From a virus (Duplodnaviria; Caudoviricetes), in IMG/VR virus record IMGVR_UViG_3300010383_000115, positions 1-47,093 of that record: a stretch of DNA of 47,093 nucleotides; one strand, given 5' to 3'. Both the position numbers and the translations under genes were made by a program. Positions 3,310 to 29,269 of the stretch are shown here, in pieces. Below the pieces are notes generated by a model. It did no database searches and had not been told where the DNA came from. It saw nothing but the letters and a program-made list of their open reading frames with translations. Numbering within the stretch: the first letter of the stretch is position 1; the number at the start of each line of letters is the position of its first letter.

Positions 3310-3603
3310 TTATTTTACGTGATACTTGATTTTTGTTACTTCAAATTCGATATCATCCAATCGGGATTGCTGTTTATCCAGCTTATCCTCTGCATTGTTA
3401 ATGCGGCGCTCATGATTTGCGATATTGGTATTTTGCGTTTCGTTGACTGTAGAGCTATTGTTGATTGCCTGCATAATGTTTGTGTACCAGATGGTACCGG
3501 CTGCCAATAGCTTAACCGTGCACACTACACAGGTTGCTCCTGTAGATAATACCGATATGATTAATGCCCACCTGGCTGTATTTATTTTCTGTGTCTGTGT
3601 CAT
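3310..3603 (-). CDS. Membrane-anchored coiled-coil protein (holin or antiholin-like)
   Basis: N-terminal TM segment then HERRINNAEDKLD coiled coil. Confidence 0.5.
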   Translation of the reverse strand: MTQTQKINTARWALIISVLSTGATCVVCTVKLLAAGTIWYTNIMQAINNSSTVNETQNTNIANHERRINNAEDKLDKQQSRLDDIEFEVTKIKYHVK

Positions 3604-4352
3604 TATGGTACTCCGTATATAGATGTTAAATAAGATGCTACCTGTGATTCATTATGCGCCCCACGATATATAATCAGTCGCTCCAATACAAAAGATGAGG
3701 CGTTGGAACCTAAATACCCAATGGTAAGGTTAGTAGCTGTAGATGTAGTGCCCAGGCTACCGGTAGTAGTGACGCCATTTACCGTAGCATAAGAGTTCGG
3801 AGAGGCTCCATTTACTTTAACCTTTAGCATATAGTGCGTGCCGTTGGTTAAAGAAGTACTGGTTGAGATAGAACCGGTGGCTGTAAATATCTTCCAGTTA
3901 TTTAATCCTGATGATCGGGTCACAAATGCATATAGATTGGTACCGTTACCATTGTCATCTGCTATCTGGAACGCACCATCACCGTTTGTAGAGATAGTAT
4001 TTGCTACAACAGCATAAATAGTATAATCTGTACTTAATGCACCTGTGATCACTAGCTTGTCAGTCCGACTACCTGTAAAGGTTATCTTACTAGTTCCATC
4101 CCATAAAGGTTGATTACCCCCCGTGGCCTGTACCGCTGCTGATCCGCTGCCTGTACTTTGGTTAGCCCATGAACTAACTCTATTTGCTGACTGTGTTACT
4201 CCTAAGGCGGCATTATAATCTCCCCAAAGATTTGTTGTTGGCAATGATACCCCCGCAGCAGGTGGTACATACATAGCGCCAGCAATCGCTGCAAGCTGTG
4301 CATAAGCAGGAAGCGAAAGTGCTAAAAGTAATATGACTAATATCCTCTTCAT
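3603..4352 (-). CDS. Signal-peptide-bearing concanavalin/LamG-like lectin-fold protein
   Basis: MKRILVILLLALSLPAYA-Q signal; LWGDYNA...VSSWANQS...QP and YLTSIYG motifs seen in tail-associated lectin domains. Confidence 0.65.
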   Translation of the reverse strand: MKRILVILLLALSLPAYAQLAAIAGAMYVPPAAGVSLPTTNLWGDYNAALGVTQSANRVSSWANQSTGSGSAAVQATGGNQPLWDGTSKITFTGSRTDKLVITGALSTDYTIYAVVANTISTNGDGAFQIADDNGNGTNLYAFVTRSSGLNNWKIFTATGSISTSTSLTNGTHYMLKVKVNGASPNSYATVNGVTTTGSLGTTSTATNLTIGYLGSNASSFVLERLIIYRGAHNESQVASYLTSIYGVP

Positions 4353-7300
4353 TATTGCATATCTCCTTGTGTGCTGTAATTGTTTGAGGTTGATTCCGGC
4401 AGTATGATGAAAGAAGCATATTGCCCAGCTGTCTTAGTGTAAGATTGCCTGTTATGGATAGTAGTACCACTGGCCGCTAAGGTCACCGCTCCGGCACCGC
4501 CTTGTTTGATGATACACCAGAATGATGCGCCTAATCCACTTGGGAGCGTTACTGTAATGGCAGAAGCATTGGTGCATTGGACAATCTTTCCGAGGTCAGA
4601 AGCCTGTAATGTGTAGGTAGTACCAGTTTGCGCATTTATGTTGATGCTCTTATCAATATAGGTGGTATTAATAGTAGAGCCTTGCCAGGTACCAGTACCG
4701 ATAGTACCAACAGTATTAATATTGGAACTGCCTGTCCAGGTTGATAAAGCGGTATTTTCCACGTTAGTTAATCCAATATCTGCCTTAGTATAAGCAAGTA
4801 TTGTCTTAAGCGTAGCTATTGATAATACTTCAGGTGCACCGGTACCAGCTGTATTCCTACCAATAACAGAAGCCGTAGCCATGTTAGCCATATCAGCAAG
4901 AGCCACACTACCATCAGCTATCTCTGTACTGCCAATGCCACCTGTTTTGATACTTACTGCGCCAGATGTAACGCTGAAATAGGTACTACTAAAAGATGCA
5001 ATACCTTTTGTACTTGTCGTTGCATCTGCTACAGAGGTAAGATATGATGGCGTGAAATTCACCCACTTACCAGATGCAAAATCATACTTCACTAACTGAC
5101 CATCTGAAGGAGTAGTAATATTAAACCCCGTTAGATCACTCATGCCGTGTGTATGGCTCAAAGCTGCTTTCCCTGCCAGGTCTGTTGTTAGGTTGATGAT
5201 ATCACTCTCTGCGTGTGTATGGGTGATATTGGCAAATACTGTTTTGTAATAGTTATAACTATGCCATCCACCCGAGGTAGTGGTGGTGTCCAGCGTAATA
5301 TTTGGGTTAGTGCCGCCAGACGATGACATCGGCGATGTAGCAGTTACTGAAGCGACTCCGCTTCCAGCAGCCATAGTACTATCCTTATACTGAAATATCC
5401 ATGTGCCGCCGATATTTGCAAATACACTATCATTACTACGCTTCAGACTATATACCCGCTTGTTAAGGCTGTCAGACAAACCAGTTATGCCTGATTGTGG
5501 AATAGTTTTAAGCCATGTAACTTTCTTAGTTGGTATTTGACCTGTAGAACTAGAACTATCTAGAACCATGTATAGCGGAATGGTACCAGTATATTGCTGT
5601 GTATTAGGTAGAAAAACCTGTGAAGCGGAGTTGGGTGTCGCTGTGGTATTAGTAACGATTAATGCAGCTGCTATGGTATCTTTTGCCGATGTACTATTCT
5701 GATATCCCAATGCAATCGTACCCCAAGGCGTCATTCTGAAAAACGGATAACTACCAGTTAAATTTTGACCTGCAGTTTGAAAGGATGGAGTAGCCCACAT
5801 TGTGATGCCCGCGCCGCCATTGGCAGTAGCAGAATTATACATACTAATGTTAACAGCATAACCGTCATGAATAGCTTTTGTACCAGATCCTTGCACGAAA
5901 TATGAATTATTCGATAGGGCTATATTATTTGCGTTTATTGATTGGAAATAGAATGATCCTATAGCCGCTGATAACTTAGTGTTTGAAACTGGGATATTTA
6001 ACAACGTAAGCGGTGAGGCGACAGTATCAATTCCAATGAAACCGGCACTATCTTGTATATGGCTTGCAACCAAACTATCAGAACTGCTAAAAACAGGAAC
6101 ATAAAAAGCTGCACCACCTGAGTACTTCAAACGGTTAGCAATAAATGAATAGGGCAGCGAACTGATCGTTTGCGTGTTGCTATCTGGTGTATGCCTTACC
6201 AATATCTCAAATAGTGCATCCGCATTCGCAGGTGCATATTTAAACTTGGTAGCAAAGTTGAACTGCAATTTACTGGCGTCGCCCTGCATCGCCGATCCTG
6301 AGAAATCATCGCGGCCACCGTTGCCGGGATTACCACCAAAACCAAACCCACGGCTGTTGGATGAAAACTTATAACGCTTTTCTAAGGTAGGGGCCGCACC
6401 TGCAGTATTAGAACCTGTGCTTTGCCAATAGCTGATCTCGCCATCTGCAAATTGTATCATTCCACTGTAGCCCGGAGTATCAGTTACATAGGTAGTGCCG
6501 TTATGGTGCAGGTTAAACCCGATGAAATAATTATAAGTAGATAACCCTTGGAAGGTAACACCACTGGCCCGCATCCCTGCATAGTTCTTAGTGAATGGTA
6601 CGGTAACAAGTGCTTTGCCATCAGGCAGCACATCAAAACCAGTTTCCCCTTCAATAACCTTTCTGCCGCTGGTATCTATACTTATTACCTGGTGGCCTCT
6701 ATAATCATACAGCCCGCCATCTACTAATAAATTACCTTTTACATATACCTGGGGGTACATTTCCTTGTCTACCTCATCAGCGCATATATAATGCCCTAAC
6801 GCACTCCAGTGAACATTATCTGTAAAGTACAGGTTGCGCTTTTGGTTATTGGCAAAGATGGTATGCAGGTCTATATAGTGTATTCCTAACTGGAAACATT
6901 CATTGCGGATGGCCGTGTTGATGATGATAAGGTCATTATCCGTCATGCTACTGCACAGGGCAGGGTTTGGTATATACCAAGCTGAAAGGGCACCTATACT
7001 TCCGCGCATCCATCCTTTAATATCTGCCTGTGCAACGAAACTATCCAATGACAGCTTTATTTGCGTGGTATCGTAGCTGGTAGCATACTGGCAACCATCA
7101 TTAAATCCTAGCTCTATTATAAGCTTGCTATTAGGCGTGGGCATTACTTCCAGCGATGCCACGCTATCCATCAGCCCTCCGTTATTATTATGCGGTGTAT
7201 AGCCTCGGTAATAAGTAGCTCCGCCATGTGCGTGGACTTTCACGGTCTGTCCATGTCGATAAGCCAGGTGTTTGTAGTAAGGTACCGGTGGCGGGTTTGT

Positions 7301-8209
7301 ATATATATCTGCGGTTATACTATTGCCAAACAGAGAAATGATGCCGCCGGGATCTTGCCAGCCAATAAACAGGGACGTATCGGTAACCGGGTTTTCTTTT
7401 GCTACCTGGTCGAGTGTTGTGCTGTGCGGATTAGTGTTATCCGTTAAATGAGCATCCCAGTCAGTAATCTGCGTATTTGTGATGGATGATGCTGCTGAAG
7501 AAGCAAAGACCGGATCTGTTTCTACAGGTAACTTCACAAAACCACTACCTGTTAAGAATAAGGTATCATTGCTAATACTGAGTGTCTGAATCTCATTCGT
7601 GTTACTGCTATCCTTATCAGATATATTGAACGATACAGATGCCCCGTTTGACATCGTAATCGTTACAACGCTTCCAGTTTTAGAAGATGTGAATGCCAAG
7701 CTATTAACCACATTGATGATATAGCTACGCAATGCCTGTGCAGTATCTGCTATAACCAGGTAATTAGGAACAGCGGAGGTATCCACCCGAATAGTATCAC
7801 CATCTATATTGATCCCATAACCAGCCTTTAATGTCTGGCCCCCACCATCGCCCCCCGGAGCGTATTTCTGAATCAATGTCTTTACAAGGTTGGTATCCTT
7901 ATAAGTCATGTAACGAACATCAACACTCCCATCCATGTGGTGTAGTGTGCTATCGCTATAGTCATAGAAGAAAACACCCCTTTCGGTAGTTACAACGGCG
8001 CCATGCACAACCCGTGGCAATATTGCTCCCAGGTTACTACTATCTTTGCCAATTTTAATAGCTGCAGATGCTGGAGGCCATACATCCTTACCAGCGTTTA
8101 TAGAAGTTGGCCCGTTAATGTAAAAGCCGCCCGGCCAGTTAATACCTGATCGTTGGGCGTCTGCTACCAAAAAACTTAAGCAGCATAGGAGTAATAAAAC
8201 CTTTCTCAT
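4352..8209 (-). CDS. Tail fibre / receptor-binding-like protein with signal peptide and SGNH esterase domain
   Basis: HTH-x-x-SDI/L fibre repeats, ETDPVF, ATTSTKG, C-terminal INAQTGTTYTL module; GNSI...GFND...DNVH; position before lysis genes. Confidence 0.8.
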   Translation of the reverse strand: MRKVLLLLCCLSFLVADAQRSGINWPGGFYINGPTSINAGKDVWPPASAAIKIGKDSSNLGAILPRVVHGAVVTTERGVFFYDYSDSTLHHMDGSVDVRYMTYKDTNLVKTLIQKYAPGGDGGGQTLKAGYGINIDGDTIRVDTSAVPNYLVIADTAQALRSYIINVVNSLAFTSSKTGSVVTITMSNGASVSFNISDKDSSNTNEIQTLSISNDTLFLTGSGFVKLPVETDPVFASSAASSITNTQITDWDAHLTDNTNPHSTTLDQVAKENPVTDTSLFIGWQDPGGIISLFGNSITADIYTNPPPVPYYKHLAYRHGQTVKVHAHGGATYYRGYTPHNNNGGLMDSVASLEVMPTPNSKLIIELGFNDGCQYATSYDTTQIKLSLDSFVAQADIKGWMRGSIGALSAWYIPNPALCSSMTDNDLIIINTAIRNECFQLGIHYIDLHTIFANNQKRNLYFTDNVHWSALGHYICADEVDKEMYPQVYVKGNLLVDGGLYDYRGHQVISIDTSGRKVIEGETGFDVLPDGKALVTVPFTKNYAGMRASGVTFQGLSTYNYFIGFNLHHNGTTYVTDTPGYSGMIQFADGEISYWQSTGSNTAGAAPTLEKRYKFSSNSRGFGFGGNPGNGGRDDFSGSAMQGDASKLQFNFATKFKYAPANADALFEILVRHTPDSNTQTISSLPYSFIANRLKYSGGAAFYVPVFSSSDSLVASHIQDSAGFIGIDTVASPLTLLNIPVSNTKLSAAIGSFYFQSINANNIALSNNSYFVQGSGTKAIHDGYAVNISMYNSATANGGAGITMWATPSFQTAGQNLTGSYPFFRMTPWGTIALGYQNSTSAKDTIAAALIVTNTTATPNSASQVFLPNTQQYTGTIPLYMVLDSSSSTGQIPTKKVTWLKTIPQSGITGLSDSLNKRVYSLKRSNDSVFANIGGTWIFQYKDSTMAAGSGVASVTATSPMSSSGGTNPNITLDTTTTSGGWHSYNYYKTVFANITHTHAESDIINLTTDLAGKAALSHTHGMSDLTGFNITTPSDGQLVKYDFASGKWVNFTPSYLTSVADATTSTKGIASFSSTYFSVTSGAVSIKTGGIGSTEIADGSVALADMANMATASVIGRNTAGTGAPEVLSIATLKTILAYTKADIGLTNVENTALSTWTGSSNINTVGTIGTGTWQGSTINTTYIDKSININAQTGTTYTLQASDLGKIVQCTNASAITVTLPSGLGASFWCIIKQGGAGAVTLAASGTTIHNRQSYTKTAGQYASFIILPESTSNNYSTQGDMQ

Positions 8210-8844
8210 TTAAAAGATATGATTGATATTTCTTGATCGGCGACAGTTTGCCCGAAGTATATAATACCGGCATCTTTGTCATAGTAGTATTCATCTTCAG
8301 CGAGTGTTTCTAAAGATGCAGAGGCTCGAAGCACACCTGTTTCGTTGAAAACAAGTACTTGCTTGGAGTTTTTAAGCTTATCTTTTATAGTGGCTGCATT
8401 CGATGCAGAATCCATCGGGAATTGCATCTGATCAGCAACACCCAAAAATTGGAATCGTTCAGATGAGAACCTGGCCGGTAACTGAACGTCAATAGGACAG
8501 CCGACGTACTTCTTTTCAATGTTAGAATTATGTACACCGATGCATAAGCGATCGTATTTATTCACAAACGCCATAGCTACATAATCGCAGGATTGCAAAT
8601 CTGTTTTAACCCGGATATCGAAAGCACGCATGCCGGCATTAAAGAAGCCATCAGGCAACTGAGTACCAAGCAACGTACCTATACCGTCTTCATCAGTGGT
8701 GAAAGGGAGCGTGTAGATATTACCGAACTGGTCCACTACCTCCCAGTAATAATCTGTATCAGGTGCCAATACACCATTTACTTTAATCTCACTTGGATTT
8801 TGGGACACATAATCCTGATATGTTTTCCCTGTTGTACAAGACAT
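8206..8844 (-). CDS. Structural protein, possible fibre adaptor
   Basis: Position between tail tube and fibre; beta-rich C-terminal domain. Confidence 0.5.
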   Translation of the reverse strand: MSCTTGKTYQDYVSQNPSEIKVNGVLAPDTDYYWEVVDQFGNIYTLPFTTDEDGIGTLLGTQLPDGFFNAGMRAFDIRVKTDLQSCDYVAMAFVNKYDRLCIGVHNSNIEKKYVGCPIDVQLPARFSSERFQFLGVADQMQFPMDSASNAATIKDKLKNSKQVLVFNETGVLRASASLETLAEDEYYYDKDAGIIYFGQTVADQEISIISFK

Positions 8845-8901: not shown

Positions 8902-9468
8902 TTAAGGATTGTACTGGAAGCAATCGAACACCCCATCAGGAGTAGCGAAAGGAGCAGGAATATCTGCTTGTGACCATTTAGCTTCAACATCCCACACTAC
9001 TTCTGCAGTAATGTCGTCCGTTACCGGATTCTTAGGAGTAACCCTAACCGGCTTTTCTGCCAGGTGCGTTTGCGTTTCAGTCCTAAAGGCGATAACATGC
9101 CTTTTAGAGTACTTCATTGCATTGTAGAAAGCAGCGTTCTCTTTATAGCTAGGGTCTTTATAGTTAAGCGTGAAGTTGTAACCGATAAGACGGCTCACTT
9201 CATCGCCATAACCTGGGCCCTCTACAGGAGAACCACCATCATAAGAACCCGATACCTCAGGTATGATGATGATCTTTTTATCTACTATACCCGCAGTCCA
9301 AAGGGATGCATCGGTAGGATCAGCTATTAAGGTCGGTAAATAGTCCTTGTCAATAAAGGCAAGGCCGCGTATCCGCCCGTGTTCTACATCATCACTGGGA
9401 CAGCCTACGCATATGTGATCTGGCACCGCCTGATCGCACGATTGAGGATAATAAACTGAAAATGACAT
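8902..9468 (-). CDS. Probable major tail tube protein
   Basis: 188 aa, beta-rich, follows neck genes, followed by a hairpin like the capsid gene. Confidence 0.65.
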   Translation of the reverse strand: MSFSVYYPQSCDQAVPDHICVGCPSDDVEHGRIRGLAFIDKDYLPTLIADPTDASLWTAGIVDKKIIIIPEVSGSYDGGSPVEGPGYGDEVSRLIGYNFTLNYKDPSYKENAAFYNAMKYSKRHVIAFRTETQTHLAEKPVRVTPKNPVTDDITAEVVWDVEAKWSQADIPAPFATPDGVFDCFQYNP

Positions 9469-11571: not shown

Positions 11572-12717
11572 TTAAACTGACTCGCTGATATTATACCTCA
11601 GTGTACCGTTAGTACCGTACAGAGGATCTTCGTTGAAGTACAAGCCTGTAGGTTTCACGAACAGGCCACCACGCCACTTCAGGATAAGCAATACACCTTC
11701 TGAAACAGTACTTTCAACACCGTTCACTGTTACCTGTGTAGGACAGTCTATTTCTTTGATCTGAACGTCAAACATCAATTTGTCCAGGTAGTCCTGAGGA
11801 CAATGATATTCAGATACAGGCAGCGCCATGGAGAAGAAATTACTGTTAGCCAGTCTTTGTGCAAAGCTACCGGTGTACATGGTCCTATTCATTAAGTGAA
11901 TAGATCCTTTTTCAAATACGCCGATGTTGTTTGCACCCCATATATCGCGCGTATCCTTGTCATACCACACTGGAGGCTTATCACCCATCAGGCGGGCTTT
12001 ATTCATACCATTCGCAGCGGCGCCATCGGCAAACCAGTTTTTAACCAGGTCTAAGTTGGCGAACGGTCCGTTACCCACCATGAAGATATCGTTACAAATT
12101 TCATTCTCCCTCAAGTCTGCCAGCAAACGGATGAACGCATCATCCATAGTATTAGAATTGAGATTGAATGTAAGCGGCGTGGCAGTGTTATCACCGGAAA
12201 CGATGTTCTTACCCCACTGTGTACCCATTTCGGTAACCAATGCTTTATTTATGGAGCCAAGCATAGCCTGGCCACCTTCCACCAGCATTTCATACACCTC
12301 ACGCATTACCAGCGTTTCAGATTGCATTTCAGCAGCTCCTTCACTGTTAATTTTCACCATCTCGCTTGAATCCTTACAATACTGACGGATCAAGCTATTC
12401 GGGATATACAGAGGGTATTCCCTATAGATGAGTGATGGAAGCATGAATTCTTCGTATGCAGGCGTATTACCTGTATCACAGGCTGATTCTGTGTCGCTAA
12501 CATCCGATTCCAGCGGACGCTTACGATATTTAACACTTATGCTGCGAACGTGACCAGCATCATATTGGTCTTTTGTCAGGGGTTGCTCCCTGGCAGAGCC
12601 ATCCATTGATGAAAGTATAGACTGCGTAAAACCTAAGGGACGCAATTTCTTTGCAGGGTTTACACCTGCGAGTGCTTCGATGTGTTGGAGTATCGAAGGA
12701 CAATAGCCATTAGCCAT
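11572..12717 (-). CDS. Major capsid protein
   Basis: 381 aa, follows the scaffold, followed by a terminator. Confidence 0.8.
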   Translation of the reverse strand: MANGYCPSILQHIEALAGVNPAKKLRPLGFTQSILSSMDGSAREQPLTKDQYDAGHVRSISVKYRKRPLESDVSDTESACDTGNTPAYEEFMLPSLIYREYPLYIPNSLIRQYCKDSSEMVKINSEGAAEMQSETLVMREVYEMLVEGGQAMLGSINKALVTEMGTQWGKNIVSGDNTATPLTFNLNSNTMDDAFIRLLADLRENEICNDIFMVGNGPFANLDLVKNWFADGAAANGMNKARLMGDKPPVWYDKDTRDIWGANNIGVFEKGSIHLMNRTMYTGSFAQRLANSNFFSMALPVSEYHCPQDYLDKLMFDVQIKEIDCPTQVTVNGVESTVSEGVLLILKWRGGLFVKPTGLYFNEDPLYGTNGTLRYNISESV

Positions 12718-17167: not shown

Positions 17168-18036
17168 TACATAGTAATTCTATCGTTTAGGAAAATGCGT
17201 TTTGATTGAATCTTATAAAAGTGCTTCAATCCGAGTTTAGTACATGCTGCCTGTACTATATGATCGTGTAGGGTTTTCAGTTTAGGAGATACTACATTCC
17301 CCCCGAAACTGATAGCATTGTATTGTTTATTGATAATTCTCAATTCAGGAACATAACCTTGATGTATGTTTGGCCAGTAGGCTGGATGCCACGGGCTTTG
17401 TTGCAGTTCGATGCCATTTAAACACAAAGATATATTAAGAGCAAATTCATCAGTTACTGCACCACCCAATTTTATTACATCTATTTTTGGGCTTCTTCTG
17501 ATTTTACGAGCTGTACCAAAGATCTTATTTGTAGTAGCAGACTTTCTGAAGAGAATAAATTCGCACCTGGTCTGGTATATCTTACCTTTTAAATCGTAGG
17601 CCGCAACGATCTCCTCCAAATTACCCCAGAAGGTATATATGCCGCTTGTAGTATCGGTATCACTGGATAAATCAACATAACCCTCGTTTACTGTAGCGTA
17701 ATCACATCCATCTAATGCAGCAAATACCTCTGAAGGCTTGCCAGCCATCCAAAGCATATCAACATCCATAGATAACGTTTCATCGAACGGAGAAAGCTTG
17801 TTCAGACTCATGCGGGTATCGTTGGCCTTCTTTATTCCGGTTTCACCTCCCGATACTGATATTACCTGGTCGAAGATCTTCTTTTTCTCTTCGTCAAGAT
17901 GTCTTAGTGCATCATCGTCTGTGATAACAGCAATTGGCATATCTGCCTCTGCAGCTTTTAATGTGACTGCAAGGTTATAGGCCATACGCCCGTAATATGG
18001 ATGGCCAAACGCCATTAACAAAATACCTCTTTTCAT
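17167..18036 (-). CDS. GT-A fold glycosyltransferase
   Basis: KRGILLMA N-terminal strand; LSPFDETLSMDVD (DxD); TDEFAL; start at 18036 preferred. Confidence 0.75.
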   Translation of the reverse strand: MKRGILLMAFGHPYYGRMAYNLAVTLKAAEADMPIAVITDDDALRHLDEEKKKIFDQVISVSGGETGIKKANDTRMSLNKLSPFDETLSMDVDMLWMAGKPSEVFAALDGCDYATVNEGYVDLSSDTDTTSGIYTFWGNLEEIVAAYDLKGKIYQTRCEFILFRKSATTNKIFGTARKIRRSPKIDVIKLGGAVTDEFALNISLCLNGIELQQSPWHPAYWPNIHQGYVPELRIINKQYNAISFGGNVVSPKLKTLHDHIVQAACTKLGLKHFYKIQSKRIFLNDRITM

Positions 18037-18050: not shown

Positions 18051-19292
18051 TTAACAATGTGATGATCCATTCCACGTACCGCTTACTGTCATTGTGTTCA
18101 CGCTTGTAGGTGTCTCCACTTTTATGGAAAACAAAGGCAGGTTTGTATGTGCCAGGAATGGACTATTTTTTATTTTGAACGTTACCGTTTTAGCTACTAA
18201 GTTTATTGTCGGCTGTGCATTTAAAAGTCCCGATTGCCAGAAAACAAAAGATACTGTCCTTGGCGTGCTGCATGATGCCAGTAATGTAGAGATGTTGACT
18301 ACAAACGTATCGCAGGCATAATACTCACCTATGTTGTAGATAGATGAAGACGATGGATCTTCATAAGTGTTGCAATCTTCACAGTTATCACGTTTCAGCA
18401 TCCAGCCGTTGTGCCATGCTTTGAATGAGATCTTTGATAATGGATATCCGAGCTCCTTATGGCTCTGTAATTCCAGGTCACCATCTTTTACAATTTCAAA
18501 GGCCTGTCCTTGTCCGTATATCTTCTTTGTTTCGTGCATCAGAGCAGCTACAAAGGCATCTATAGCCCACTGAGGCATGTAATCTGTTTCGAAATCATAC
18601 TGCTTATAGGTTATGTCCTTTGTAACTTTCCTTTGGCCGTTGCTCTTTACATAAACAGCCTGTTCTTGTTTGTAAGCCGGATTACTCCAGAAGATAGGTA
18701 GGCGTAACCTGTTTTTAAAGTTTGTGTTCGCACAATAATTGAACCCATAATCATCGGTAGGATGTTGATACTCGAGAACATTCGTATAATCTTCATCGAC
18801 TATCTCCATGCAGTTGGATATACCCAACATAACAGGCCCGGCACCTACATCATACCCAAAACGCAACTGGAAACAGTCCCCTATGTCAAGGTTGTGTTCA
18901 CTACCATCCGGGTTAGGAATTATCAAATGATTGAAGGGGTATCTCCAGCTTAACAGGAATTTGGTATCTGTCAACCTTATCTTTTCAATAAACTGGCCGT
19001 TACTTACATTAGCAGCATTCGGCCATTTATATGCGGTTAGGTCTACCGGTGTATTTATGCCCTTTGACAATAAGAAAAACATATTGTCTTTGTCAAGGCT
19101 ACATAATAAAGCAGTTTCGGTACTATCTGACGCTTCGAGATAAAATTGAAAGTAAAGATCATCTTCCTTTGCTACCGGTAAACACCATGCTATATCTGTA
19201 CCTGGTAACTGTTTTTCGTTCCAGTCATTTACAGGGGTGTAACTGCTGGCAAACTTGACGAAAGAAAAATAGTTTGAAGTAATCGAGATCAT
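18051..19292 (-). CDS. Minor tail / baseplate protein
   Basis: Second gene after the tape measure gene; beta-rich and Cys-rich. Confidence 0.55.
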   Translation of the reverse strand: MISITSNYFSFVKFASSYTPVNDWNEKQLPGTDIAWCLPVAKEDDLYFQFYLEASDSTETALLCSLDKDNMFFLLSKGINTPVDLTAYKWPNAANVSNGQFIEKIRLTDTKFLLSWRYPFNHLIIPNPDGSEHNLDIGDCFQLRFGYDVGAGPVMLGISNCMEIVDEDYTNVLEYQHPTDDYGFNYCANTNFKNRLRLPIFWSNPAYKQEQAVYVKSNGQRKVTKDITYKQYDFETDYMPQWAIDAFVAALMHETKKIYGQGQAFEIVKDGDLELQSHKELGYPLSKISFKAWHNGWMLKRDNCEDCNTYEDPSSSSIYNIGEYYACDTFVVNISTLLASCSTPRTVSFVFWQSGLLNAQPTINLVAKTVTFKIKNSPFLAHTNLPLFSIKVETPTSVNTMTVSGTWNGSSHC

Positions 19293-19294
19293 GA

Positions 19295-21703
19295 CTATGC
19301 TCGTTTTGGCTTAAGAGTAAATGTTGCTATTCCCTCATCAGGGCTGTATTCTAAATTGTCAATCCATCCACTACCGGAGAAGTTAGAAGTACTGAATGCT
19401 ATCTCCATGTGCCTGTATTGTTTGATAAGCTTCCATTCTTCCATTTTGAGCGGATATTTAAATACTATCTGCTCCAGAAATATGTAAGGGAGAAGAATGT
19501 CCGGGCTGTTTACCATGGCAGCAGTAATATTCTGCTTTTCGGATATAGCAGCTGCTTCATCATTGCAATAACTGCTGGTTTGTTTACCCTTTGCGTAGAA
19601 ATTACCCTCCCCGTTGGTAAATATCAATGGTGTAGATGCATCGGCCTGCCTATCAAATGCCAAAAGGAACGGCAACCAGTTCAGCATCATGCGTGCTGGT
19701 GATATTCTATAATTTACCAGGGAATCAGGGTCTATGATATTTTCAGCACTGGCAATGCCTCCCTGTTCAACAGATATGGTACCATCTATATTCCGATTCA
19801 TGCAGAGAATAAACGTATCGTTATCATACCTCCAGTCTTCAGATGTATCATGGCCTAAACGGCGGGTAATTTCATAGGCATAGCTGGATGCAACAAACGT
19901 ACTTATCAAATCAAGTGCGTTACTTACTTGTGTTAAATCGGTTCTGTACGATCGCTTTGTGTTGATCTCATCAATACCGTTGTACTTCTCCGCTTCCCAT
20001 TTGTTATATCCTATGTTGATATTTGCATAATGCTTGTCAACCCGAACAGTTAAAGATATCTCATCTACATTGTCACAACTGAATATAATACCGTCCTGAT
20101 AAAACCAGCCTGAGTTTTCCACTCTGATTCTGTTATACCCAAACCGGCTAGGGTCTTCTTCAATAGTGAAACCTATATTATGCAAGGGATTGAGCCCTTT
20201 TAGCAGATCGGTGAACGAAACGGCCATTATCGGCGGTTGTGCAGGCCTTGCCTTCTCAATACCACGGAGAAACAGCCCGCTTAATATGGCTTCCAGCCCT
20301 CCACAGCCATCTTCTGTTGATACATAAGGTTCTGCATCAGTACGCCCGAAATAATCGCTATACACCCTCATATTATCGTTTGTAATAGCTTCGGTCACCC
20401 GGGAAAGAGCTTCGTTTATTAAGAACACCTTAGCGGTTGTGTCAGGTGGCTTTGATAAGCTGGAGATGTATATGTAAGAATTTAGGTAATAGGTGATATC
20501 GAAGGTTGGTCCATCAGGGACCAACAACCCACCGCCGGCATTATGCACATAGTTCTGCCAGGTACCCAGCCCTAGGAAGAAATATATCCTGTCCCCATCT
20601 TCAAGATCATGATATGTGAAATTGAGAACAGTATTCGTAACCGCCCAAGGGTCAAGGTCAGGCTGCGAACCTGAAAGTGTTAAGTAGTGATTTGTAAAAA
20701 CCTGCCAGCCTTCAGAACCTGCAGGGATGCTACCGTCTTTTTTCCTACGACACATATAAATGGAACCACCAAGGAACCCTTGTACATATTTCTTTGTTGG
20801 CGTCTGTGTAGGATCTGATTTAGGCTGTACAGTAGCCGCAAACAATATCTCTATATTGACTGTATCAAGCTTATCGTGATAATTTTGATAAGGGTTACCA
20901 TATGATAAAATAGGTGTAATATCATCTAAAGGGCATGCATTTACATAACCCAAACCATGCAAATCAACCGTGTTCGGCAAGGGGACCCACCAACTTGGTA
21001 TGATAGGGGATGAACTACTTGAAAAACCCAAATCATACTCGTTTATGATGCCAGTACCTACCCCTGCTCCGTTAGTTAATTGTCCGATCTCCTCAAAAAC
21101 TACTTTATCGAATGTAGGCACGAAGAAAGCAGTAATAAAATTGGACAGCGAAGAGCTGGGGCCGTCAACAATGTTAGACTCGAAAGTGTCTATTTCTGTG
21201 GATAGCCTCTCAACCTCATCCTGTACAAATATCCCTTTCCCGGGCATTGTCTTTTCTATGCCCAGGTTTGTGTATGGCGCCAAGGCTGTTCCATCAAAAG
21301 ACTCATCTGTCAATAAATCCACTTTGGAATCTATCCTGTTACGGAACGTCATGATAGGGCTGCTATCTTCTAAACTGATCGTTACTGTGCAATCACTACC
21401 GAAATCAGGCTTATAATCTCCAAAGCTTATCCTGCCTTCAAAATCCTGTTCTGTATCACCACTACCACATACATGTGATATACGAAGCATCATCATGCCT
21501 TTCAACCCGTAAGTTTCATACTCTTCTCGAATCATTTTGCCACCATCACCATCAAACTCGAAATCCTTTAAAGCATATTCAAAGTTTACGCCGTGATAAT
21601 CGGGATCTCTTTTTATCACAAACCTCTGTGTGTCCCATCCTACAGGTTCATCTATTTGATGTGCAACACCATTACGATCTATCAATTCAAATATCCATCT
21701 CAT
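19295..21703 (-). CDS. Tail tip / baseplate hub protein
   Basis: Directly after the tape measure gene; EPVGWD N-terminus; beta-rich. Confidence 0.6.
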   Translation of the reverse strand: MRWIFELIDRNGVAHQIDEPVGWDTQRFVIKRDPDYHGVNFEYALKDFEFDGDGGKMIREEYETYGLKGMMMLRISHVCGSGDTEQDFEGRISFGDYKPDFGSDCTVTISLEDSSPIMTFRNRIDSKVDLLTDESFDGTALAPYTNLGIEKTMPGKGIFVQDEVERLSTEIDTFESNIVDGPSSSLSNFITAFFVPTFDKVVFEEIGQLTNGAGVGTGIINEYDLGFSSSSSPIIPSWWVPLPNTVDLHGLGYVNACPLDDITPILSYGNPYQNYHDKLDTVNIEILFAATVQPKSDPTQTPTKKYVQGFLGGSIYMCRRKKDGSIPAGSEGWQVFTNHYLTLSGSQPDLDPWAVTNTVLNFTYHDLEDGDRIYFFLGLGTWQNYVHNAGGGLLVPDGPTFDITYYLNSYIYISSLSKPPDTTAKVFLINEALSRVTEAITNDNMRVYSDYFGRTDAEPYVSTEDGCGGLEAILSGLFLRGIEKARPAQPPIMAVSFTDLLKGLNPLHNIGFTIEEDPSRFGYNRIRVENSGWFYQDGIIFSCDNVDEISLTVRVDKHYANINIGYNKWEAEKYNGIDEINTKRSYRTDLTQVSNALDLISTFVASSYAYEITRRLGHDTSEDWRYDNDTFILCMNRNIDGTISVEQGGIASAENIIDPDSLVNYRISPARMMLNWLPFLLAFDRQADASTPLIFTNGEGNFYAKGKQTSSYCNDEAAAISEKQNITAAMVNSPDILLPYIFLEQIVFKYPLKMEEWKLIKQYRHMEIAFSTSNFSGSGWIDNLEYSPDEGIATFTLKPKRA

Positions 21704-24700
21704 CGTGCGCTGTATTTATTGTTTAATATTTCGGTTTTTGTATTTCTGTCGTGTATATGGATGCTAAACCCATCTATATCGGCGTTGACGCTTACTGCTT
21801 TATTCTCAGGCATGTATTTAGCGATCGACTTGCCTAGTTTATCATAGTCGAAGATTTCACCTGATTTTGTTACGTGGTAATCGCTCAACTCACGGGCGGA
21901 TTGCTTAGGCAGGTTACCGGCCAGTATTGCATCAGGATCTGAATGCACACCGACGTTATCCCATACCTTGCCGATCTTGGTAGATTCCCGATCGTTATAA
22001 ATAATCTCCCCACCGTTCAATTTCACAATTTCAGGGCCACGTTCACCCACCCAGGCATAACCTTTCTTGGCGCTCCGGGTACCGGTGAAGTATTGAGGTA
22101 TCGGAGTATTCCTAATTTTAGCGACTTGTAAGCCTGCTGTGATGCCTGCACCAGCGGCGGCAATGATAGCAGCATAGAAGGGTTTAACAGTGGCCAAGGC
22201 GTTAGTAACAGCCAGCGCACCGTTGATAATGGCAAGTGTTACCTGTGCATTACGATCCCTGATAAATGCTGCTGTTTTGATGCGGCGTTCTTCATCACGG
22301 TACCTTTTATCAATAGCAGCCTTTTGCGCTTCGCTAAGACTCTTATTCGACACTTCAGCATCAAATTGAGCCTTTAATCTGGCAAGATCAGAATCTAACT
22401 GGGATTGCCGATTTGTATTCTCCATATCGGCAACGGTAGATATGGCATCACTGGCAATTTTAAACCCTTCTGTAATCACTGCTTCACGGATAGCACGTTC
22501 CCGCTCTGCATAGGCCTGTACTATCTCAAAACGTTTCTGCTCCTCCTTATCTTTCAGGTCTGTTTTCTGTGCCTCATATTCTTGGAAGGTAATAACACCG
22601 GTAGCGGCAAGCTGGTCAACTTTCGCATTCTCATCTTCGATAAGTTTCAGCTCTTTTTGACGAGAGGCCTGTAAAGCAAGAAACCTATCCCGTTCGGATA
22701 AGTTTAAAGTACCTGATAATCGTACCAATCTGTTAACCTCCAGCTGGTCAAGCGATCGGTTTCGTTCATACTGGGCGTTAATCTGCTGCTCGTAACGCTG
22801 CTTATCCAGTGCATCCAGATCTTGGTTAAGTTTCAGGTTTATCTGTAACAGCTTGGCAGCTTTCTCCTGTTCAGTATCTTCTGACTGGTTAACGGCCACC
22901 ATATCATTAGCAGCCTGCTTTTGAAGGAAAACACGCTGTGCGTCATAGTACTGCTGTGTACCCTGCTGGAAGGAAAGAACACGGTTTTGAGCCTTGATAA
23001 CTTCCAGTTCGGAAGCGTTCTTAGCCTCATCATAATTGAACTGCTTCTTTAAATCGAATATATCCTTAGCGGCTTTTCCTTCAATCAATGCACGCTCGTT
23101 AGAGGTAAGAGCAGCATTCTGCAATTCAATATCACGCTCCAGCTCTATCTGTTTGATGCGGTTATCCAGTTCATCCCGACTGCCTTTCTTAGCATATAGT
23201 ACCCGTAAGTCGATAACATCCTTTTCATCTTTCAGCTCTATCTGACGATATCCCAGGCGCAAATCCCTGATTTCCTTTTCACTTTTTGCGATGATAGCCT
23301 GACGCTGGGCCTGTGTAAGATTCGTATCATTCAGATCAATATCACGGGATGCATTAACCAAAGCTATTTTAAGCTGCAGTTCTCTATCGGTACCTTGTTT
23401 AACACTTGCTAGTGCTGCCTCGATGGTAGCTTTACGGGATTGCAGGGCTTTATCATTAGATTGCTTTTCATGATCTAACCTGAGAGTGGTGCCAGAAGAT
23501 ACAGCATCGTTATAGTCTTTCTCCGCAGCGATGCCGACGTTTACCTTCTTCTCGAGCAGGGATATCTCATTATCTAGCGACTCCTGTCTTTTCTTGGAAT
23601 CATCATCATCCTTACCGGCCAGCTTCGCCCTATCCTGATAGAGTGCCTCAAGCTTTGCTTGGTTAACGCCGATATCGCTTATCTCTTGAGCATAGTACCC
23701 TTTATTTGCAGCGGCAAGGTTTTGGCGTTGATCGGCCAGCTTCTGCTGTATTTTATAGATTTCTTCAGAAGATGCTCGTCGGGCTTTTGCCTGCTCCAGT
23801 TCTCTTTCTGTTTGCTTGATACGGTTCTGTAACGGGGTATTAAGTATCTCGTTTTCTTTCTGTATAGCTTCGAAGGCGGCATTTGCTTCTTCGGCCAGTT
23901 TCTTTTGGGATTCCGCGGCATCGTTTGAGTTCTTTGTAAAGGCGAATAAAGCAATAGCAGCTGTGGCAAGGACGGTAACCAATAAACCTACAGGATTTGC
24001 GGCCATAGCGGCGTTAAGTGCTCTCTGTGCCACGGTAGCAGATACACGGACAATGGTATATTCACTTTCAAGAGCTGAAGCGATCGCTGTTTGTGCATTC
24101 CCCAATAACTGCAGGCGTAGCTTATTGGCAATGGTGATGATGTACTGCTTTTCTGCCAGGTCTTGAAGTTGCTGTAATCCCTGAAGAACAGCCATAGCAG
24201 CGTTTACTTTTAAAAGTGTCTGCTGTACCTGCTCACTCTCATCACCGAATAATGCAGCGGTACCTTGTGCAACGGCAAAGCCGGCGGCTACTCCTTGTGC
24301 ACCATCTATGATATTGTCGAAGCCTCGAGTATCACTACCTGCGCGGGTAACGGTTTCAGAGGTATCATTGATAGCATCGTTATACCTACCGGCCAGCTCT
24401 ACAAGCTCATTATAGCGTGCCCGGTCTGTATCTGTCCATTTCTTCTCATCAACTAACAACTGGGCAATCTCCGCTTTCATTTCCCGGAGCTTCTTCTTCA
24501 GGCTTTCTTCTTTATCTACGGCTTCACCAGTAGCGGCGCTCATGCCTTGAATCTTCTTTACAAGATCCTGTACGGATATTCCAGATTCTTTAGCTGCTTG
24601 GGCCATGCCTTCACCGACACCAGCCATGAATTCATCTACCAGTGAAGAAACAGCCTTTTCTACCTGCGAAACAGAAGCGGCTTGCTTCTTTTGCGAGTCA

Positions 24701-24897
24701 GTAAGAGTATTGGTTGCTTTGTTAGTGTCCTGTAGTATCTTATAACGTTTTTGCAGCTCTGTATTACCTTTTGAGTAAGCCTGAGCTGCATTATCTGTTA
24801 ATTCGCCTTTCTTCTGGAGTTCAGCTATAGAAGATTCTACTTGTGATATATCAGGTACGAACTCAACGACGACCTGGGGATTTTGTGTTGTGGCCAC
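21700..24897 (-). CDS. Tape measure protein
   Basis: 1065 aa helical; ALNAAMAANPVG; C-terminal YFTGT...AWVGERGPEIV. Confidence 0.92.
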   Translation of the reverse strand: MATTQNPQVVVEFVPDISQVESSIAELQKKGELTDNAAQAYSKGNTELQKRYKILQDTNKATNTLTDSQKKQAASVSQVEKAVSSLVDEFMAGVGEGMAQAAKESGISVQDLVKKIQGMSAATGEAVDKEESLKKKLREMKAEIAQLLVDEKKWTDTDRARYNELVELAGRYNDAINDTSETVTRAGSDTRGFDNIIDGAQGVAAGFAVAQGTAALFGDESEQVQQTLLKVNAAMAVLQGLQQLQDLAEKQYIITIANKLRLQLLGNAQTAIASALESEYTIVRVSATVAQRALNAAMAANPVGLLVTVLATAAIALFAFTKNSNDAAESQKKLAEEANAAFEAIQKENEILNTPLQNRIKQTERELEQAKARRASSEEIYKIQQKLADQRQNLAAANKGYYAQEISDIGVNQAKLEALYQDRAKLAGKDDDDSKKRQESLDNEISLLEKKVNVGIAAEKDYNDAVSSGTTLRLDHEKQSNDKALQSRKATIEAALASVKQGTDRELQLKIALVNASRDIDLNDTNLTQAQRQAIIAKSEKEIRDLRLGYRQIELKDEKDVIDLRVLYAKKGSRDELDNRIKQIELERDIELQNAALTSNERALIEGKAAKDIFDLKKQFNYDEAKNASELEVIKAQNRVLSFQQGTQQYYDAQRVFLQKQAANDMVAVNQSEDTEQEKAAKLLQINLKLNQDLDALDKQRYEQQINAQYERNRSLDQLEVNRLVRLSGTLNLSERDRFLALQASRQKELKLIEDENAKVDQLAATGVITFQEYEAQKTDLKDKEEQKRFEIVQAYAERERAIREAVITEGFKIASDAISTVADMENTNRQSQLDSDLARLKAQFDAEVSNKSLSEAQKAAIDKRYRDEERRIKTAAFIRDRNAQVTLAIINGALAVTNALATVKPFYAAIIAAAGAGITAGLQVAKIRNTPIPQYFTGTRSAKKGYAWVGERGPEIVKLNGGEIIYNDRESTKIGKVWDNVGVHSDPDAILAGNLPKQSARELSDYHVTKSGEIFDYDKLGKSIAKYMPENKAVSVNADIDGFSIHIHDRNTKTEILNNKYSAR

Positions 24898-26290: not shown

Positions 26291-26523
26291 AACGCTTTAA
26301 GAGTTGTATCGAGTTGCTTAAGAGATGTAAGGCCCTGCTTTACGAAATTCCCGTTCAGTATGCGGAACTGGAATGTTTTGACCCACCATTCAACCTCCAG
26401 CCCAGGGAAGCTATCATGTCTGTACAGGTATTTAACCACCCGCTTGCACTTACACTTTTCATGGAAGTACCATCCATTGTCAGTCAATGCCTGTGGAGTA
26501 TTATTCACTGTCATTGCCCACAT
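26287..26523 (-). CDS. Hypothetical protein with CKC motif
   Basis: Coupled ORF in the late operon. Confidence 0.55.
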   Translation of the reverse strand: MWAMTVNNTPQALTDNGWYFHEKCKCKRVVKYLYRHDSFPGLEVEWWVKTFQFRILNGNFVKQGLTSLKQLDTTLKAL

Positions 26524-26830
26524 TTATAACATAATCCCTGCACAGCTCTATAATGTTGATAAGCAGAACATTTAACCCAGCCGATGCAAACAATATGAGT
26601 ATGCATTTGAACCAGTTCAATGAAGGAAGGGAGTTTGTTAAGTCAGCTATTGCTAAGATGATGCTGCCATACCATGGCGCCATGCAGATAGGACAGTCAA
26701 ACAGCGGTTTTTTAATGAATGCGGGAAGGTTAAAAGCCCATACAGAAACCTTGTCAAATATCATTCCTTCCCATGTTGTAGCATGCAGGAAAAGTATAGT
26801 CAGCGATATTATAACAATCCATTGTAACAT
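26501..26830 (-). CDS. Membrane protein with CxxC (DUF1360-like)
   Basis: About three TM segments; LFDCPICMAPWYG. Confidence 0.65.
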   Translation of the reverse strand: MLQWIVIISLTILFLHATTWEGMIFDKVSVWAFNLPAFIKKPLFDCPICMAPWYGSIILAIADLTNSLPSLNWFKCILILFASAGLNVLLINIIELCRDYVINVGNDSE

Positions 26831-26846
26831 GAAATCAAAGTTATAA

Positions 26847-26871: not shown

Positions 26872-26913
26872 ATTTCCTAACTTCACACTTTCTAAATAGC
26901 CTGTATTTTATAC

Positions 26914-26952
26914 AAACCGATGTGCCCTGTTCGCGTCGGTTTTGTTTTTTTT
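26914..26952 (+). terminator. Plus-strand intrinsic terminator (antisense to late genes)
   Basis: AAACCGATGTG-ccctgtt-CGCGTCGGTTT then T run; G-U pairs form only on the + RNA. Confidence 0.6.
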
Positions 26953-26987
26953 GTCGTCTAAAGTCATCTAATACCGTCTAAGTACGT

Positions 26988-28271
26988 CTAGCGATACCCC
27001 TTCAGGAAATGCCGCATGTTCCTGTTACACCAATACCGGTAACCGTCCAATGCCTCCAATTGCTGCGTAGGGTCCTTACGATCGGCTTTCTTAAGTGTAC
27101 CATCTGGTAACATCTCCGCAAATTCAAAGTCGAATATCAACGATGCTGCACCATCAGGATCTATTTTATGTGCTACGTGCTCCAGTACTGCGTTTACCAA
27201 TACCTGGTTCTCTTCAATGGATGGGTTAGATGCCAGCTGCTGCATTTGCCCCATGGTTAAATCCATCTCTGCTTTGATGATACGGAAGTAGTTAAGGTTA
27301 TCCTTAACCATCGCTGATTTATTGTTACCGGAAGCATCTCCGTTTACGATAAAATGCGGGACAGGTTGCCCGGGCCGGATGAACTTATTCTTCAGATATT
27401 CACAGAGCTTATAAATGTCACTATTCTCCAACTGGATAACGTAAGGCACATGGACAATCTCATCGTAGTACTGGATTACCGTGCAGCTGATCGGGTTCTT
27501 ATTGAAGTCAAAAGACAGGTATATGGGATAATCGTAATTCACACTGCATTTGTACACATGCTTAGATTTATCAAAAGCGTAGGCAAACCTTGCCGAAGAG
27601 TTTACGAATGGGATTGCATAATATAATTCCAAGAATACGCCCCTAGGTAATGTTCTTTCAGCTTCATCGATAACACTTTGCTTAAGCACTCCAGCGTTAA
27701 CAGCATCATTCGCTGTTAACTTATAGTACTCCCAATTCTCTTTTTCTCCGGTTTCAGCCTCTCTTGCGAGTTTGTAATTCCAGTTACCTATACCCTTAAC
27801 ATTACCTATTATTTTGGCAGGCCCCTCCGTAGCTGATAGAGTTGTAAACGTGGCTATCCACGAATCCTCTTTCATCCGGGTAGCTTCATCCAGTACTGCA
27901 GCTTTAACGTCTTCACCGTAAAGCCCGTCCGGGTCATCAGCAGATTTGAAGAAGATAATAGCACCAGTGATCAGTGTGATGCTCATTTCGGTTTGGTTGG
28001 CAGTGTACATCCTTTTAGGCTGGATATACCGCTTCATACGCCTGAAGGCTATCTTAGCCACTTTGGAAGTGGGCGCTACCCACCAGTAGTTATCACCGTC
28101 CCTACCGGATAAAGCCATTTCAAACAGCCATACAATGCAACCAACAGTCTTACCTGCCTTGGTGGTGGCTTCTACTATAGTAAAACGCTCCTCATTATCT
28201 ATGAAAGCACGCTGCTTATCATACTGGTTGATGATAGAAGGCCTCTGATAATTAATGGTAATGGTACTCAT
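26988..28271 (-). CDS. terL: Terminase large subunit
   Basis: ATTKAGKT Walker A variant, WWVAPT, AVLDEA Walker B, SFDFN nuclease motif. Confidence 0.92.
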   Translation of the reverse strand: MSTITINYQRPSIINQYDKQRAFIDNEERFTIVEATTKAGKTVGCIVWLFEMALSGRDGDNYWWVAPTSKVAKIAFRRMKRYIQPKRMYTANQTEMSITLITGAIIFFKSADDPDGLYGEDVKAAVLDEATRMKEDSWIATFTTLSATEGPAKIIGNVKGIGNWNYKLAREAETGEKENWEYYKLTANDAVNAGVLKQSVIDEAERTLPRGVFLELYYAIPFVNSSARFAYAFDKSKHVYKCSVNYDYPIYLSFDFNKNPISCTVIQYYDEIVHVPYVIQLENSDIYKLCEYLKNKFIRPGQPVPHFIVNGDASGNNKSAMVKDNLNYFRIIKAEMDLTMGQMQQLASNPSIEENQVLVNAVLEHVAHKIDPDGAASLIFDFEFAEMLPDGTLKKADRKDPTQQLEALDGYRYWCNRNMRHFLKGYR

Positions 28272-28714
28272 GACAGGTTAAGAGTGGTTTCTATGGTAAT
28301 GTCATGAATAGTAGCACCAGCGCCGCCGCTGTCGGATGGCTTACCTGGTTTCTCTTTGATGTTCTCCAATTCCGCTAAGGAATCGAGAATCTTTAAGCCG
28401 GTTGCGGCTGCTTGTGCTGTGTTCTTATCCTGTATGCCGTTGTAAAGCTTCAGGCGGGCCGCTATATGCCATGCTATGCGTTCAGGTATATCGCTGGCAC
28501 TGGATTCTTTTATCTTCTCCCGGGCCTTTTTTAAATAGTTGTGTGATTGCCTTTCTGTAACACCCCAGGCAGATACACAGCTACTAACGATCGCTTCAGT
28601 ATCCTGACCATCAAGGTACCACTCGATAACATTCTTTATCCGTTTCTCAAGCTCGAATATACTAGACCTGGTACCACCTTTCTTTTTGCCTTTATTCGCA
28701 TTCTCTTTTGGCAT
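28268..28714 (-). CDS. terS: Terminase small subunit (probable)
   Basis: HTH-like WGVTERQSHNYL; overlaps the terL start. Confidence 0.7.
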   Translation of the reverse strand: MPKENANKGKKKGGTRSSIFELEKRIKNVIEWYLDGQDTEAIVSSCVSAWGVTERQSHNYLKKAREKIKESSASDIPERIAWHIAARLKLYNGIQDKNTAQAAATGLKILDSLAELENIKEKPGKPSDSGGAGATIHDITIETTLNLS

Positions 28715-28831
28715 TCGGAGTCTTATTTAGTGTTTCACTGCTTAACAGCGACGTATTTTCTGTGTGTGTTCTAAATGAAAAAGGGCAGGGTGACGATACA
28801 CCCTCCCTTACTTACTAACCCGTCATAAAAG

Positions 28832-29269
28832 CTACTTTGCAACCCAGTTACCCGATATAAGGAATTTGGCAGGCGTAGGTACAACCAATAGCAATTGCCA
28901 GTTATCGTACCCGAGCAGGGGCGAAAGGCTGGCAGGTGCCCTAAGAGTGTACCCTTTGGAACCGGCAACGTTCTGTAATGTTACCACGGTACTATCGCCC
29001 GGATTGGTGCCTATGTCCGCGAACGAACCATTGATTTTACACTGCAGCTTCACATACCCTTTAACAGAGTCTATTTTCGTAGCTGTTAAGTGAACAAGCA
29101 ACTGCTTTTTATTGGTAAGAGATATCGAGCTAGGGTTAATGGCCATGGTATAGCTACCGGCCGCTTGAACACTATCGCTGGATGTAGGCTTACCAAGTGC
29201 AGAGGGTTGGGCTATTGCGTTGGACGAAAGGCCGATAACGGCAATTGCGATGATTAGAAACTGTTTCAT
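28832..29269 (-). CDS. Secreted beta-sandwich protein
   Basis: MKQFLIIAIAVIGLSSNAIA-Q signal peptide. Confidence 0.7.
   Translation of the reverse strand: MKQFLIIAIAVIGLSSNAIAQPSALGKPTSSDSVQAAGSYTMAINPSSISLTNKKQLLVHLTATKIDSVKGYVKLQCKINGSFADIGTNPGDSTVVTLQNVAGSKGYTLRAPASLSPLLGYDNWQLLLVVPTPAKFLISGNWVAK

Follow-up and report, generated by a model that had tools for sequence, protein, structure and literature searches.

The window analysed here, meaning the whole stretch of 47,093 bases, is the complete virus record IMGVR_UViG_3300010383_000115. It carries an integrase, a repressor, replication genes and a single long late region on the minus strand, and is a siphovirus-type, temperate long-tailed phage or prophage of a Chitinophagaceae-type host. 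The late genes run from the terminase through a CxxC membrane protein, the tape measure, two tail-tip genes, a glycosyltransferase (GT) and the portal to the head genes, a probable tail tube, a 212-amino-acid (aa) gene, two signal-bearing genes of 1285 and 249 aa and the lysis genes. To our knowledge, tailed phages are thought to make and join all their parts in the cytoplasm. We are concerned here with the 1285-aa fibre-like protein, with two smaller late proteins that likewise open with an export signal, and with the 212-aa protein encoded next to the fibre:

4352..8209, minus strand: fibre-like protein of 1285 aa, with a Sec signal (residues 1-18), Gln at +1 and a conserved N-domain (residues 19-115)
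3603..4352, minus strand: 249-aa protein with signal and Gln, a single beta-sandwich-type domain, no glycosylation motif and no Cys
28832..29269, minus strand: 145-aa protein with signal and Gln, a possible capsid decoration, rare in the family
8206..8844, minus strand: 212-aa signal-less protein of two immunoglobulin (Ig)-like domains, collar- or adaptor-like, a candidate docking site for the fibre

An initial annotation, made from the sequence of the window, had read cleavable Sec-type signals with Gln at +1 in all three signal-bearing proteins. This reading is borne out, as each has a basic start, then a hydrophobic core and A-x-A, followed by Gln. Signals were called with a home-made heuristic, which places a signal peptidase I-type signal followed by Gln (SPI+Gln) at residue 19 of 4352-8209 and 3603-4352; the signal of 28832-29269 was judged by inspection (Gln 21). 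When the heuristic was run on 413 core proteins of 26 relatives it made 14 SPI calls and none of SPI+Gln. Gln exposed after signal cleavage is described as an export mark of Bacteroidota (PMC5837995, PMC10653852), and the sequence features of this Sec/signal peptidase I route (n-, h- and c-region, A-x-A, Gln at +1) are present in the 1285-aa fibre and most of its homologues. SPI+Gln is kept in 101 of 109 database homologues of the fibre's N-domain. The Gln is also the first residue of that domain, and neither the window nor relative G001 has a conserved Met after the signal.

Beyond the N-domain, the fibre contains an SGNH/GDSL esterase (residues 293-473), a phage tail repeat (993-1033) and a C-terminal phage domain. 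The whole protein has no sequence match in the PDB, many homologues of its N-domain carry the phage-tail-like trimer region PF26696, and the language-model neighbours of the N-domain scored below 0.9 and are a lead only. Pfam and NCBIfam scans found no type IX secretion system (T9SS) sorting domain, lipobox or beta-barrel/outer-membrane anchor in any of the three proteins; the same Pfam approach did pick up a T9SS domain in host neighbours. The stop of 8206-8844 overlaps the start of the 1285-aa gene (ATGA), whose own stop overlaps the start of the 249-aa gene (TAATG), and these signal-bearing genes are therefore tied to the late operon.

The 145-aa protein has two homologues, both with signal and Gln, and among the 26 relatives a homologue is found only in G001; its language-model neighbours are viral clusters with a score of 0.88, again a lead only. 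Signal-bearing genes of 177-185 aa that precede the terminase in G015, G017, G018 and G022 were considered as its homologues and rejected, and resemble beta-barrel morons. Small outer-membrane beta-barrel-like genes with signal and Gln stand before the terminase at L074:9279-9812, L077:2698-3255, L078:3029-3586 and L087:3839-4384, and are likely lysogen morons. In two loci (L037:11211-11648 and L039:11195-11632) a 145-aa signal+Gln gene comes next after the capsid gene, where a decoration protein is usually encoded; neither is homologous to 28832-29269.

We then compared the place of the fibre across the family. A capsid profile recovered 44 loci (36 viral and 8 genome loci), 26 of which were extended to near-whole maps. 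A large gene follows the tail tube in 32 of the 44 (at least 250 aa, within four genes), and its product is SPI+Gln in 18 loci and without signal in 14; one of the 18 is a duplicate, and L037, L018 (a fusion with another family) and L027 are doubtful members of the 14. The signal trait changes four times on a 27-row capsid tree, with at least three changes forced by well-supported branches, and its clustering is not significant (74 of 500 shuffles were as low). The two kinds of slot protein have the S74 chaperone, beta-helix and SGNH esterase in common and share mosaic segments that are at most 77% identical. Moreover, a short N-terminal motif that opens six signal-less fibres also follows the Gln in three signal-bearing ones (best E 0.005). 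A profile of this motif matches residues 28-55 of crAss001 gp22 weakly (E 0.13), and phi10:1 gp090 was rejected as a carrier at an E-value of only 0.1. In its slot between tail and lysis genes, its conserved N-terminus and its variable enzymatic or chaperone tip, 4352-8209 has the traits of a tail fibre; it departs from the standard fibre, made in the cytoplasm without a signal, in that a signal is there and conserved.

Bacteroidota are described as O-glycosylating a D-S/T-hydrophobic motif in non-cytoplasmic proteins only (PMC12871550). We therefore counted D[ST][AILVMT] against a shuffled expectation, leaving out L036, which duplicates L007, and L037, which is frameshifted and shows signal and Gln in the frame upstream. 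The 18 signal-bearing first fibres hold 143 motifs where 59 are expected (2.4 times), as against 19 where 33 are expected (0.6 times) in 16 hand-picked signal-less slot proteins. Twelve core families lie at 0.64-1.18-fold, the control motifs (Glu, Asn and reversed) give 0.62, 1.23 and 1.38, and the database homologues of the fibre's N-domain show a 2.3-fold excess. Among 30 window proteins tested, the excess is seen in the 1285-aa fibre (14 motifs vs 6.2 expected), the 145-aa protein (3 vs 0.36) and two spanin-like proteins; the 249-aa protein has no motif. From the Sec signal, the Gln at +1 and the motif excess of the 1285-aa fibre, its export to the periplasm is therefore very likely, and glycosylation of the signal-bearing fibres is predicted from the same sequences, as an option across the family.

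Several lines of evidence bear on whether the exported fibre belongs to the virion. The first concerns its neighbour. The 212-aa protein is modelled with pLDDT 91 as two Ig-like domains joined by a loose linker. Its best match in the PDB comes from the P74-26 neck, one chain of which it hits with E 2.4e-6 but low TM-scores of 0.26/0.36; its viral matches are BppU, baseplate and fibre proteins. The P74-26 neck contains a collar protein, gp112, with two Ig domains and a flexible linker (PMC12407722), an arrangement like that of 8206-8844; the difference is that the matched chain, Ga, is equated with the collar by inference and that no fibre docking is described in the available part of that account. 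The N-domain of the 212-aa protein is found in 23-24 of 26 relatives. In G023 this N-domain (96% probability) is fused, without a signal, to a domain of the 249-aa type, and the mature part of the window's 249-aa protein aligns with the C-terminal part of the fusion (216 columns, E 3e-7).

Secondly, there is a precedent in culture. The Cellulophaga phages phi10:1 (KC821618) and phi18:3 (KC821620) encode SPI+Gln proteins, gp091-gp095 and gp085-gp087 respectively. GenBank marks seven of them, phi10:1 gp091-094 and phi18:3 gp085-087, as structural from tandem mass spectrometry (MS/MS); gp095 is not so marked. These are thus cultured Bacteroidota phages in which SPI+Gln proteins, mostly MS/MS-structural, stand before the lysis genes as in the window, with the difference that the GenBank notes make no mention of signals and that the proteins show no motif excess. 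The notes reportedly go back to Holmfeldt et al. 2013.

Thirdly, the N-domain of the window fibre occurs in 7 of 401 Chitinophagaceae genomes (G105, G167, G232, G275, G323, G357 and G399; loci L146-L152 and L153-L162), which are also the only ones with close matches to the cassette capsid (72-100% identical; an eighth genome stands at 24%). The cassette holds a scaffold-like gene, a capsid homologue, a homologue of a 328-aa family, a CxxC membrane protein, a 181-aa gene, a 212-aa homologue (97%) and, directly after it, a signal+Gln fibre; holin-like and lipoprotein genes follow, and housekeeping genes flank the whole. A terminase was found in all five cassette genomes tested. In the stretches fetched, terminase and portal, like the tape measure and a chaperone-like gene, are at separate places among host genes. 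The cassette fibres hold 36 motifs where 15 are expected. One cassette capsid gene, that of G105, has an internal stop. Among named organisms, Polluticoccus soli, Taibaiella sp. and Flavipsychrobacter sp. have homologues of the fibre. The 181-aa protein did not match window 9488-10084, nor did the host element's proteins of 736-749, 567-576 and 216-217 aa match the window tail families in profile comparisons. As judged from these sequences, the cassette is possibly a split, domesticated element of this phage family resembling a gene transfer agent (GTA), with putative DNA transfer. Because this reduced particle kit keeps an exported fibre behind its neighbour, the fibre is likely to belong to the particle. 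Taken together, the slot exchange and gene overlaps, the cultured precedent, the G023 fusion and the co-retention in the cassette point indirectly to a virion role, and we regard attachment of the fibre to the virion at lysis as the best explanation, with odds somewhat better than even.

A number of observations weigh against this explanation. The N-domain of the fibres at L003-L010 is matched in 21 of the 401 Chitinophagaceae genomes, frequently by signal+Gln paralogues in tandem, and N-domain arrays reach up to 10 matches per genome (L119-L138). When the array loci were scanned with family profiles and with Pfam, the latter on 77 of 108 chosen neighbours, 17 of the 20 fetched loci were without a phage marker; L130 and L134 bear phage or mobile marks and L138 contains nothing classifiable. 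Such fibres therefore also serve cellular roles. The collar match of the 212-aa protein has a low TM-score, the Cellulophaga proteins have no detectable homology to the window's signal proteins and are known by GenBank notes, co-purification is possible, and the virion role in this family is a prediction from gene sequences. The motif excess is not general either: L038 stands at 0.2-fold and L039 at 1.0-fold, seven second signal-bearing genes have 12 motifs vs 10.9 expected, and the seven Cellulophaga signal+Gln proteins have 8 vs 20.8. Since the fibres compared are related sequences and not independent samples, the rank-test p of 5e-6 overstates certainty. Lastly, the earlier statement that the window has no signal-less tail fibre anywhere holds in that none is clear; however, three candidate tail or neck proteins lack a signal (18051-19292, 19295-21703 and 8206-8844), and receptor binding may fall to either of the first two.

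These points lead to an alternative in which the phage has captured secreted fibres of host type, and the signal-bearing proteins either sit on the surface of the lysogen or are freed at lysis as trimeric adhesins or esterases; they would be absent from the virion, which would bind its receptor via the signal-less tail-tip proteins. It is favoured by the host arrays, outside phages, in which the signal+Gln fibres have a related N-domain, and exported late-region products such as lambda Lom and Shiga toxin are established; relatives of the window also carry outer-membrane beta-barrel morons. The MAT fibres of Bdellovibrio, compared here by their description, have a signal peptide, a conserved N-domain and mosaic phage-like tips, S74 being frequent among them, and are surface displayed (PMC10769870). 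They differ from the present fibres in being chromosomal, whereas here the gene is coupled into a phage late operon and swaps with signal-less fibres. The arrays at L119-L138 are, as an observation in their own right, a possible MAT-like family of Bacteroidota. A surface role accords poorly with the one-for-one swap with signal-less fibres in the same slot (four changes on the capsid tree), the annotation of signal+Gln proteins as structural from MS/MS in the cultured phages phi10:1 and phi18:3, and the fusion to and co-retention with the collar-like protein. Nor do the scans described above show a T9SS sorting domain or outer-membrane anchor, and no promoter motif belongs to these genes; the Bacteroidota -7 motif, in its usual consensus, is absent from the coding strand below 11862, a weak test given that it is under-represented window-wide. 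We therefore consider the surface alternative unlikely.

The initial annotation had gone further and placed a GT, a membrane CxxC protein and Cys-rich structural proteins in the same extracytoplasmic pathway as the fibres. The two genes are:

17167..18036, minus strand: GT-A glycosyltransferase, glycogenin-like (profile E 0.0012), with an invariant DxD (D91-x-D93), no signal, predicted cytoplasmic
26501..26830, minus strand: 109-aa three-helix membrane protein, weakly DUF1360-like, with an invariant CxxC that is predicted to lie on the cytoplasmic side

Both were identified correctly in the initial annotation. The N-terminal fold by profile and the DxD motif mark 17167-18036 as a predicted GT-A enzyme, and its coupling to the portal is confirmed by the overlap of its stop with the portal start and by its position directly before the portal in 30 of the 31 loci showing both. 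In the membrane protein C46 and C49 are invariant in 22 homologues, three of which weakly match DUF1360 (PF07098; best E 0.0035), while the window protein itself gives no match. Lys and Arg residues summed over the 22 number 0 in the N-terminus, 90 in loop 1, 6 in loop 2 and 17 in the C-terminus, and by the positive-inside rule the CxxC is thus predicted to lie on the cytoplasmic side, which speaks against a DsbB/VKOR-type periplasmic oxidase. Adjoining this gene in 14 of 26 relatives is one for a basic protein with a conserved CxC, of 78 aa in the window (26287-26523). Enrichment in Cys is real in the family, with 2.3-4.3% in five structural families vs 1.4% in other open reading frames, and modest in the window (1.5-2.4%). 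The Cys-rich proteins are the signal-less shell proteins; the tape measure and scaffold are near 0, and the mature exported proteins of 1285, 249 and 145 aa have 6, 0 and 1 Cys.

It is the joining of these parts into one phage-encoded extracytoplasmic pathway that finds no support. The parts do co-occur in most relatives, with the GT in 25 of 26 and the CxxC gene in 23 of 26, but they do so as family-core genes and not as partners of the signal. Of six genomes with signal-less fibres, 5 have the GT, and the CxxC gene is there in all 5 that cover its region. Moreover, the GT lacks a signal, and GT-A enzymes need nucleotide sugars; the CxxC is predicted to be on the cytoplasmic side, and Cys is scarce in the exported proteins. 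The available part of a crAss001 virion study describes disulfides in core tail parts with no mention of signal peptides (PMC10172136). In the host cassette a similar-looking CxxC protein precedes the 212-aa homologue and fibre by two genes, which speaks for a joint pathway, with a weak profile match (2.4%, E 0.019); the GT was not found in five cassette genomes in a search without positive control. We consider a single pathway of this kind very improbable. On this comparative evidence, the likeliest role of the GT is that of a cytoplasmic decorator of structural proteins, and the CxxC protein is likeliest a membrane thiol or metal-binding protein with a putative role in serving the Cys-rich shell. 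Mycobacteriophages are said to use GTs in modifying virion proteins (Freeman et al. 2023); the likeness lies in a phage GT among structural genes that likely modifies virion proteins, and the difference in that the present family has a single GT-A gene in a fixed place between the tail-tip and portal genes, with a putative substrate.

A last alternative, in which the hydrophobic stretch is unused for the virion form and only an isoform from an internal start or Sec escape is assembled, agrees with the standard assembly pathway and with the dual starts that occur in phage lysis genes, but is very improbable given an N-domain that begins at the Gln, with no conserved Met after the signal in the window or G001, and the selection for a motif used in the periplasm only.

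We therefore favour, with moderate confidence, a reading in which the 1285-aa fibre is exported and host-glycosylated and docks on a particle built in the cytoplasm, with the GT and CxxC protein outside the export route. The fibre would be exported by host Sec into the periplasm, where host enzymes would cleave the signal, cap the new N-terminus as pyroglutamate and glycosylate the protein. Head and tail would be built in the cytoplasm, and the fibre would meet the particle once the holin opens the inner membrane, likely docking on the collar-like 212-aa protein. The 249-aa and 145-aa proteins would probably take the same route as accessory decorations. The GT and CxxC protein would likely be older family-core functions, acting on signal-less structural proteins from the cytoplasmic side. 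Of the five-part extracytoplasmic system first proposed, the part that stands is export and host decoration of 4352-8209, well supported by the conserved signals and motif excess; joining to the particle is indirectly indicated, and the wider system is not upheld.

The other genes assigned in the late region are:

11572..12717, minus strand: major capsid protein, 381 aa, HK97 fold, with invariant C80 and C325
15410..17167, minus strand: portal protein (PHROG 7376, E 1.4e-17)
8902..9468, minus strand: probable major tail tube, from position, size and conservation; its profile hits phi10:1 tail protein gp084 weakly (E 0.011)
18051..19292, minus strand: probable distal tail protein, signal-less, with a variable C-terminal extension (weak distal-tail match, E 0.019)
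19295..21703, minus strand: tail-tip/hub protein, signal-less (PHROG 15220 virion structural protein, E 2.9e-79)
21700..24897, minus strand: tape measure protein, from weak PHROG matches, lack of Cys and position
26988..28271, minus strand: terminase large subunit, by profile annotation
1573..3603, minus strand: lysis block directly after the signal-bearing genes, with holin-like, spanin-like and GH108 endolysin genes, the holin and spanin labels being inferred from hydrophobicity and position

Named homologues of the capsid protein come from Chitinophagaceae and Chitinophagales. The capsid protein of the window is recorded in a 1.8-Mb contig as well, and locus L033 carries a provirus classification. 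The capsid protein had no match among cultured phages; the portal, tail-tip and GT proteins gave weak matches at most, and a single-protein scan of viral contigs found nothing. C80 and C325 are invariant in 68 homologues and lie in extended strands or loops of the model, where an inter-subunit disulfide is possible. The portal has a DnaJ-like CxxCxGxG zinc-finger insert at about residues 290-322, and a similar motif occurs in 29358-29879. In relatives of 18051-19292 the C-terminal extension varies, giving 340-687 aa when the gene is single; the distal-tail-like gene is split in two in G003, G004 and G007-G009, and in several relatives the terminase lies far from the structural block. The window ends share no terminal repeat of at least 12 bases, and sigma-70 and terminator scans gave no excess over shuffles. 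Elsewhere, two DNA methyltransferases and an SNF2-like helicase stand in a row in the early region (36105-39971), and a small Cys-rich lipoprotein-like gene after the repressor (46824-47093) is a possible superinfection-exclusion moron.

With regard to known systems, the Gln at +1 and the excess of the D-S/T-hydrophobic motif are like those of non-cytoplasmic host proteins, the difference being that these processes are described for cellular proteins; the word 'phage' is absent from the accessible part of the review PMC12871550. Ordinary siphophage fibres and tailspikes resemble the window fibre in standing before the lysis genes and in having a conserved N-terminus and variable S74, beta-helix or SGNH tips; they differ in being made in the cytoplasm without a signal, as with crAss001 gp22, which is described as docking via residues 1-26 (PMC10172136). 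A literature search, with most subscription journals outside its scope, found no description of Sec-exported tailed-phage fibres or of a Chitinophagaceae GTA. What is new here is a siphovirus family with interchangeable signal-bearing and signal-less fibres, a GT and CxxC protein set apart from export, a collar-like candidate adaptor and a host cassette. A broader picture is tentative, and we put its chances slightly below even. In it, Bacteroidota tailed phages would assemble in two compartments, with host-capped and host-glycosylated fibres from the periplasm joining the cytoplasmic head and tail at a collar-like adaptor during lysis. Exported and cytoplasmic fibres would be exchangeable on one chassis and be traded with arrays of secreted host adhesins, and one lineage of Chitinophagaceae would have domesticated the chassis, with its exported fibre, as a split GTA-like particle.

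If the favoured reading is true, the final assembly step of these phages would fall at lysis, and the host-recognition part of the virion would carry sugars put on by the last host it grew in, with possible effects on host range, stability and recognition. Annotation pipelines would then miss receptor-binding proteins wherever they class signal-bearing genes of prophages as cargo of the lysogen. Moreover, a GTA-like particle may exist in Bacteroidota, as the host cassette suggests.

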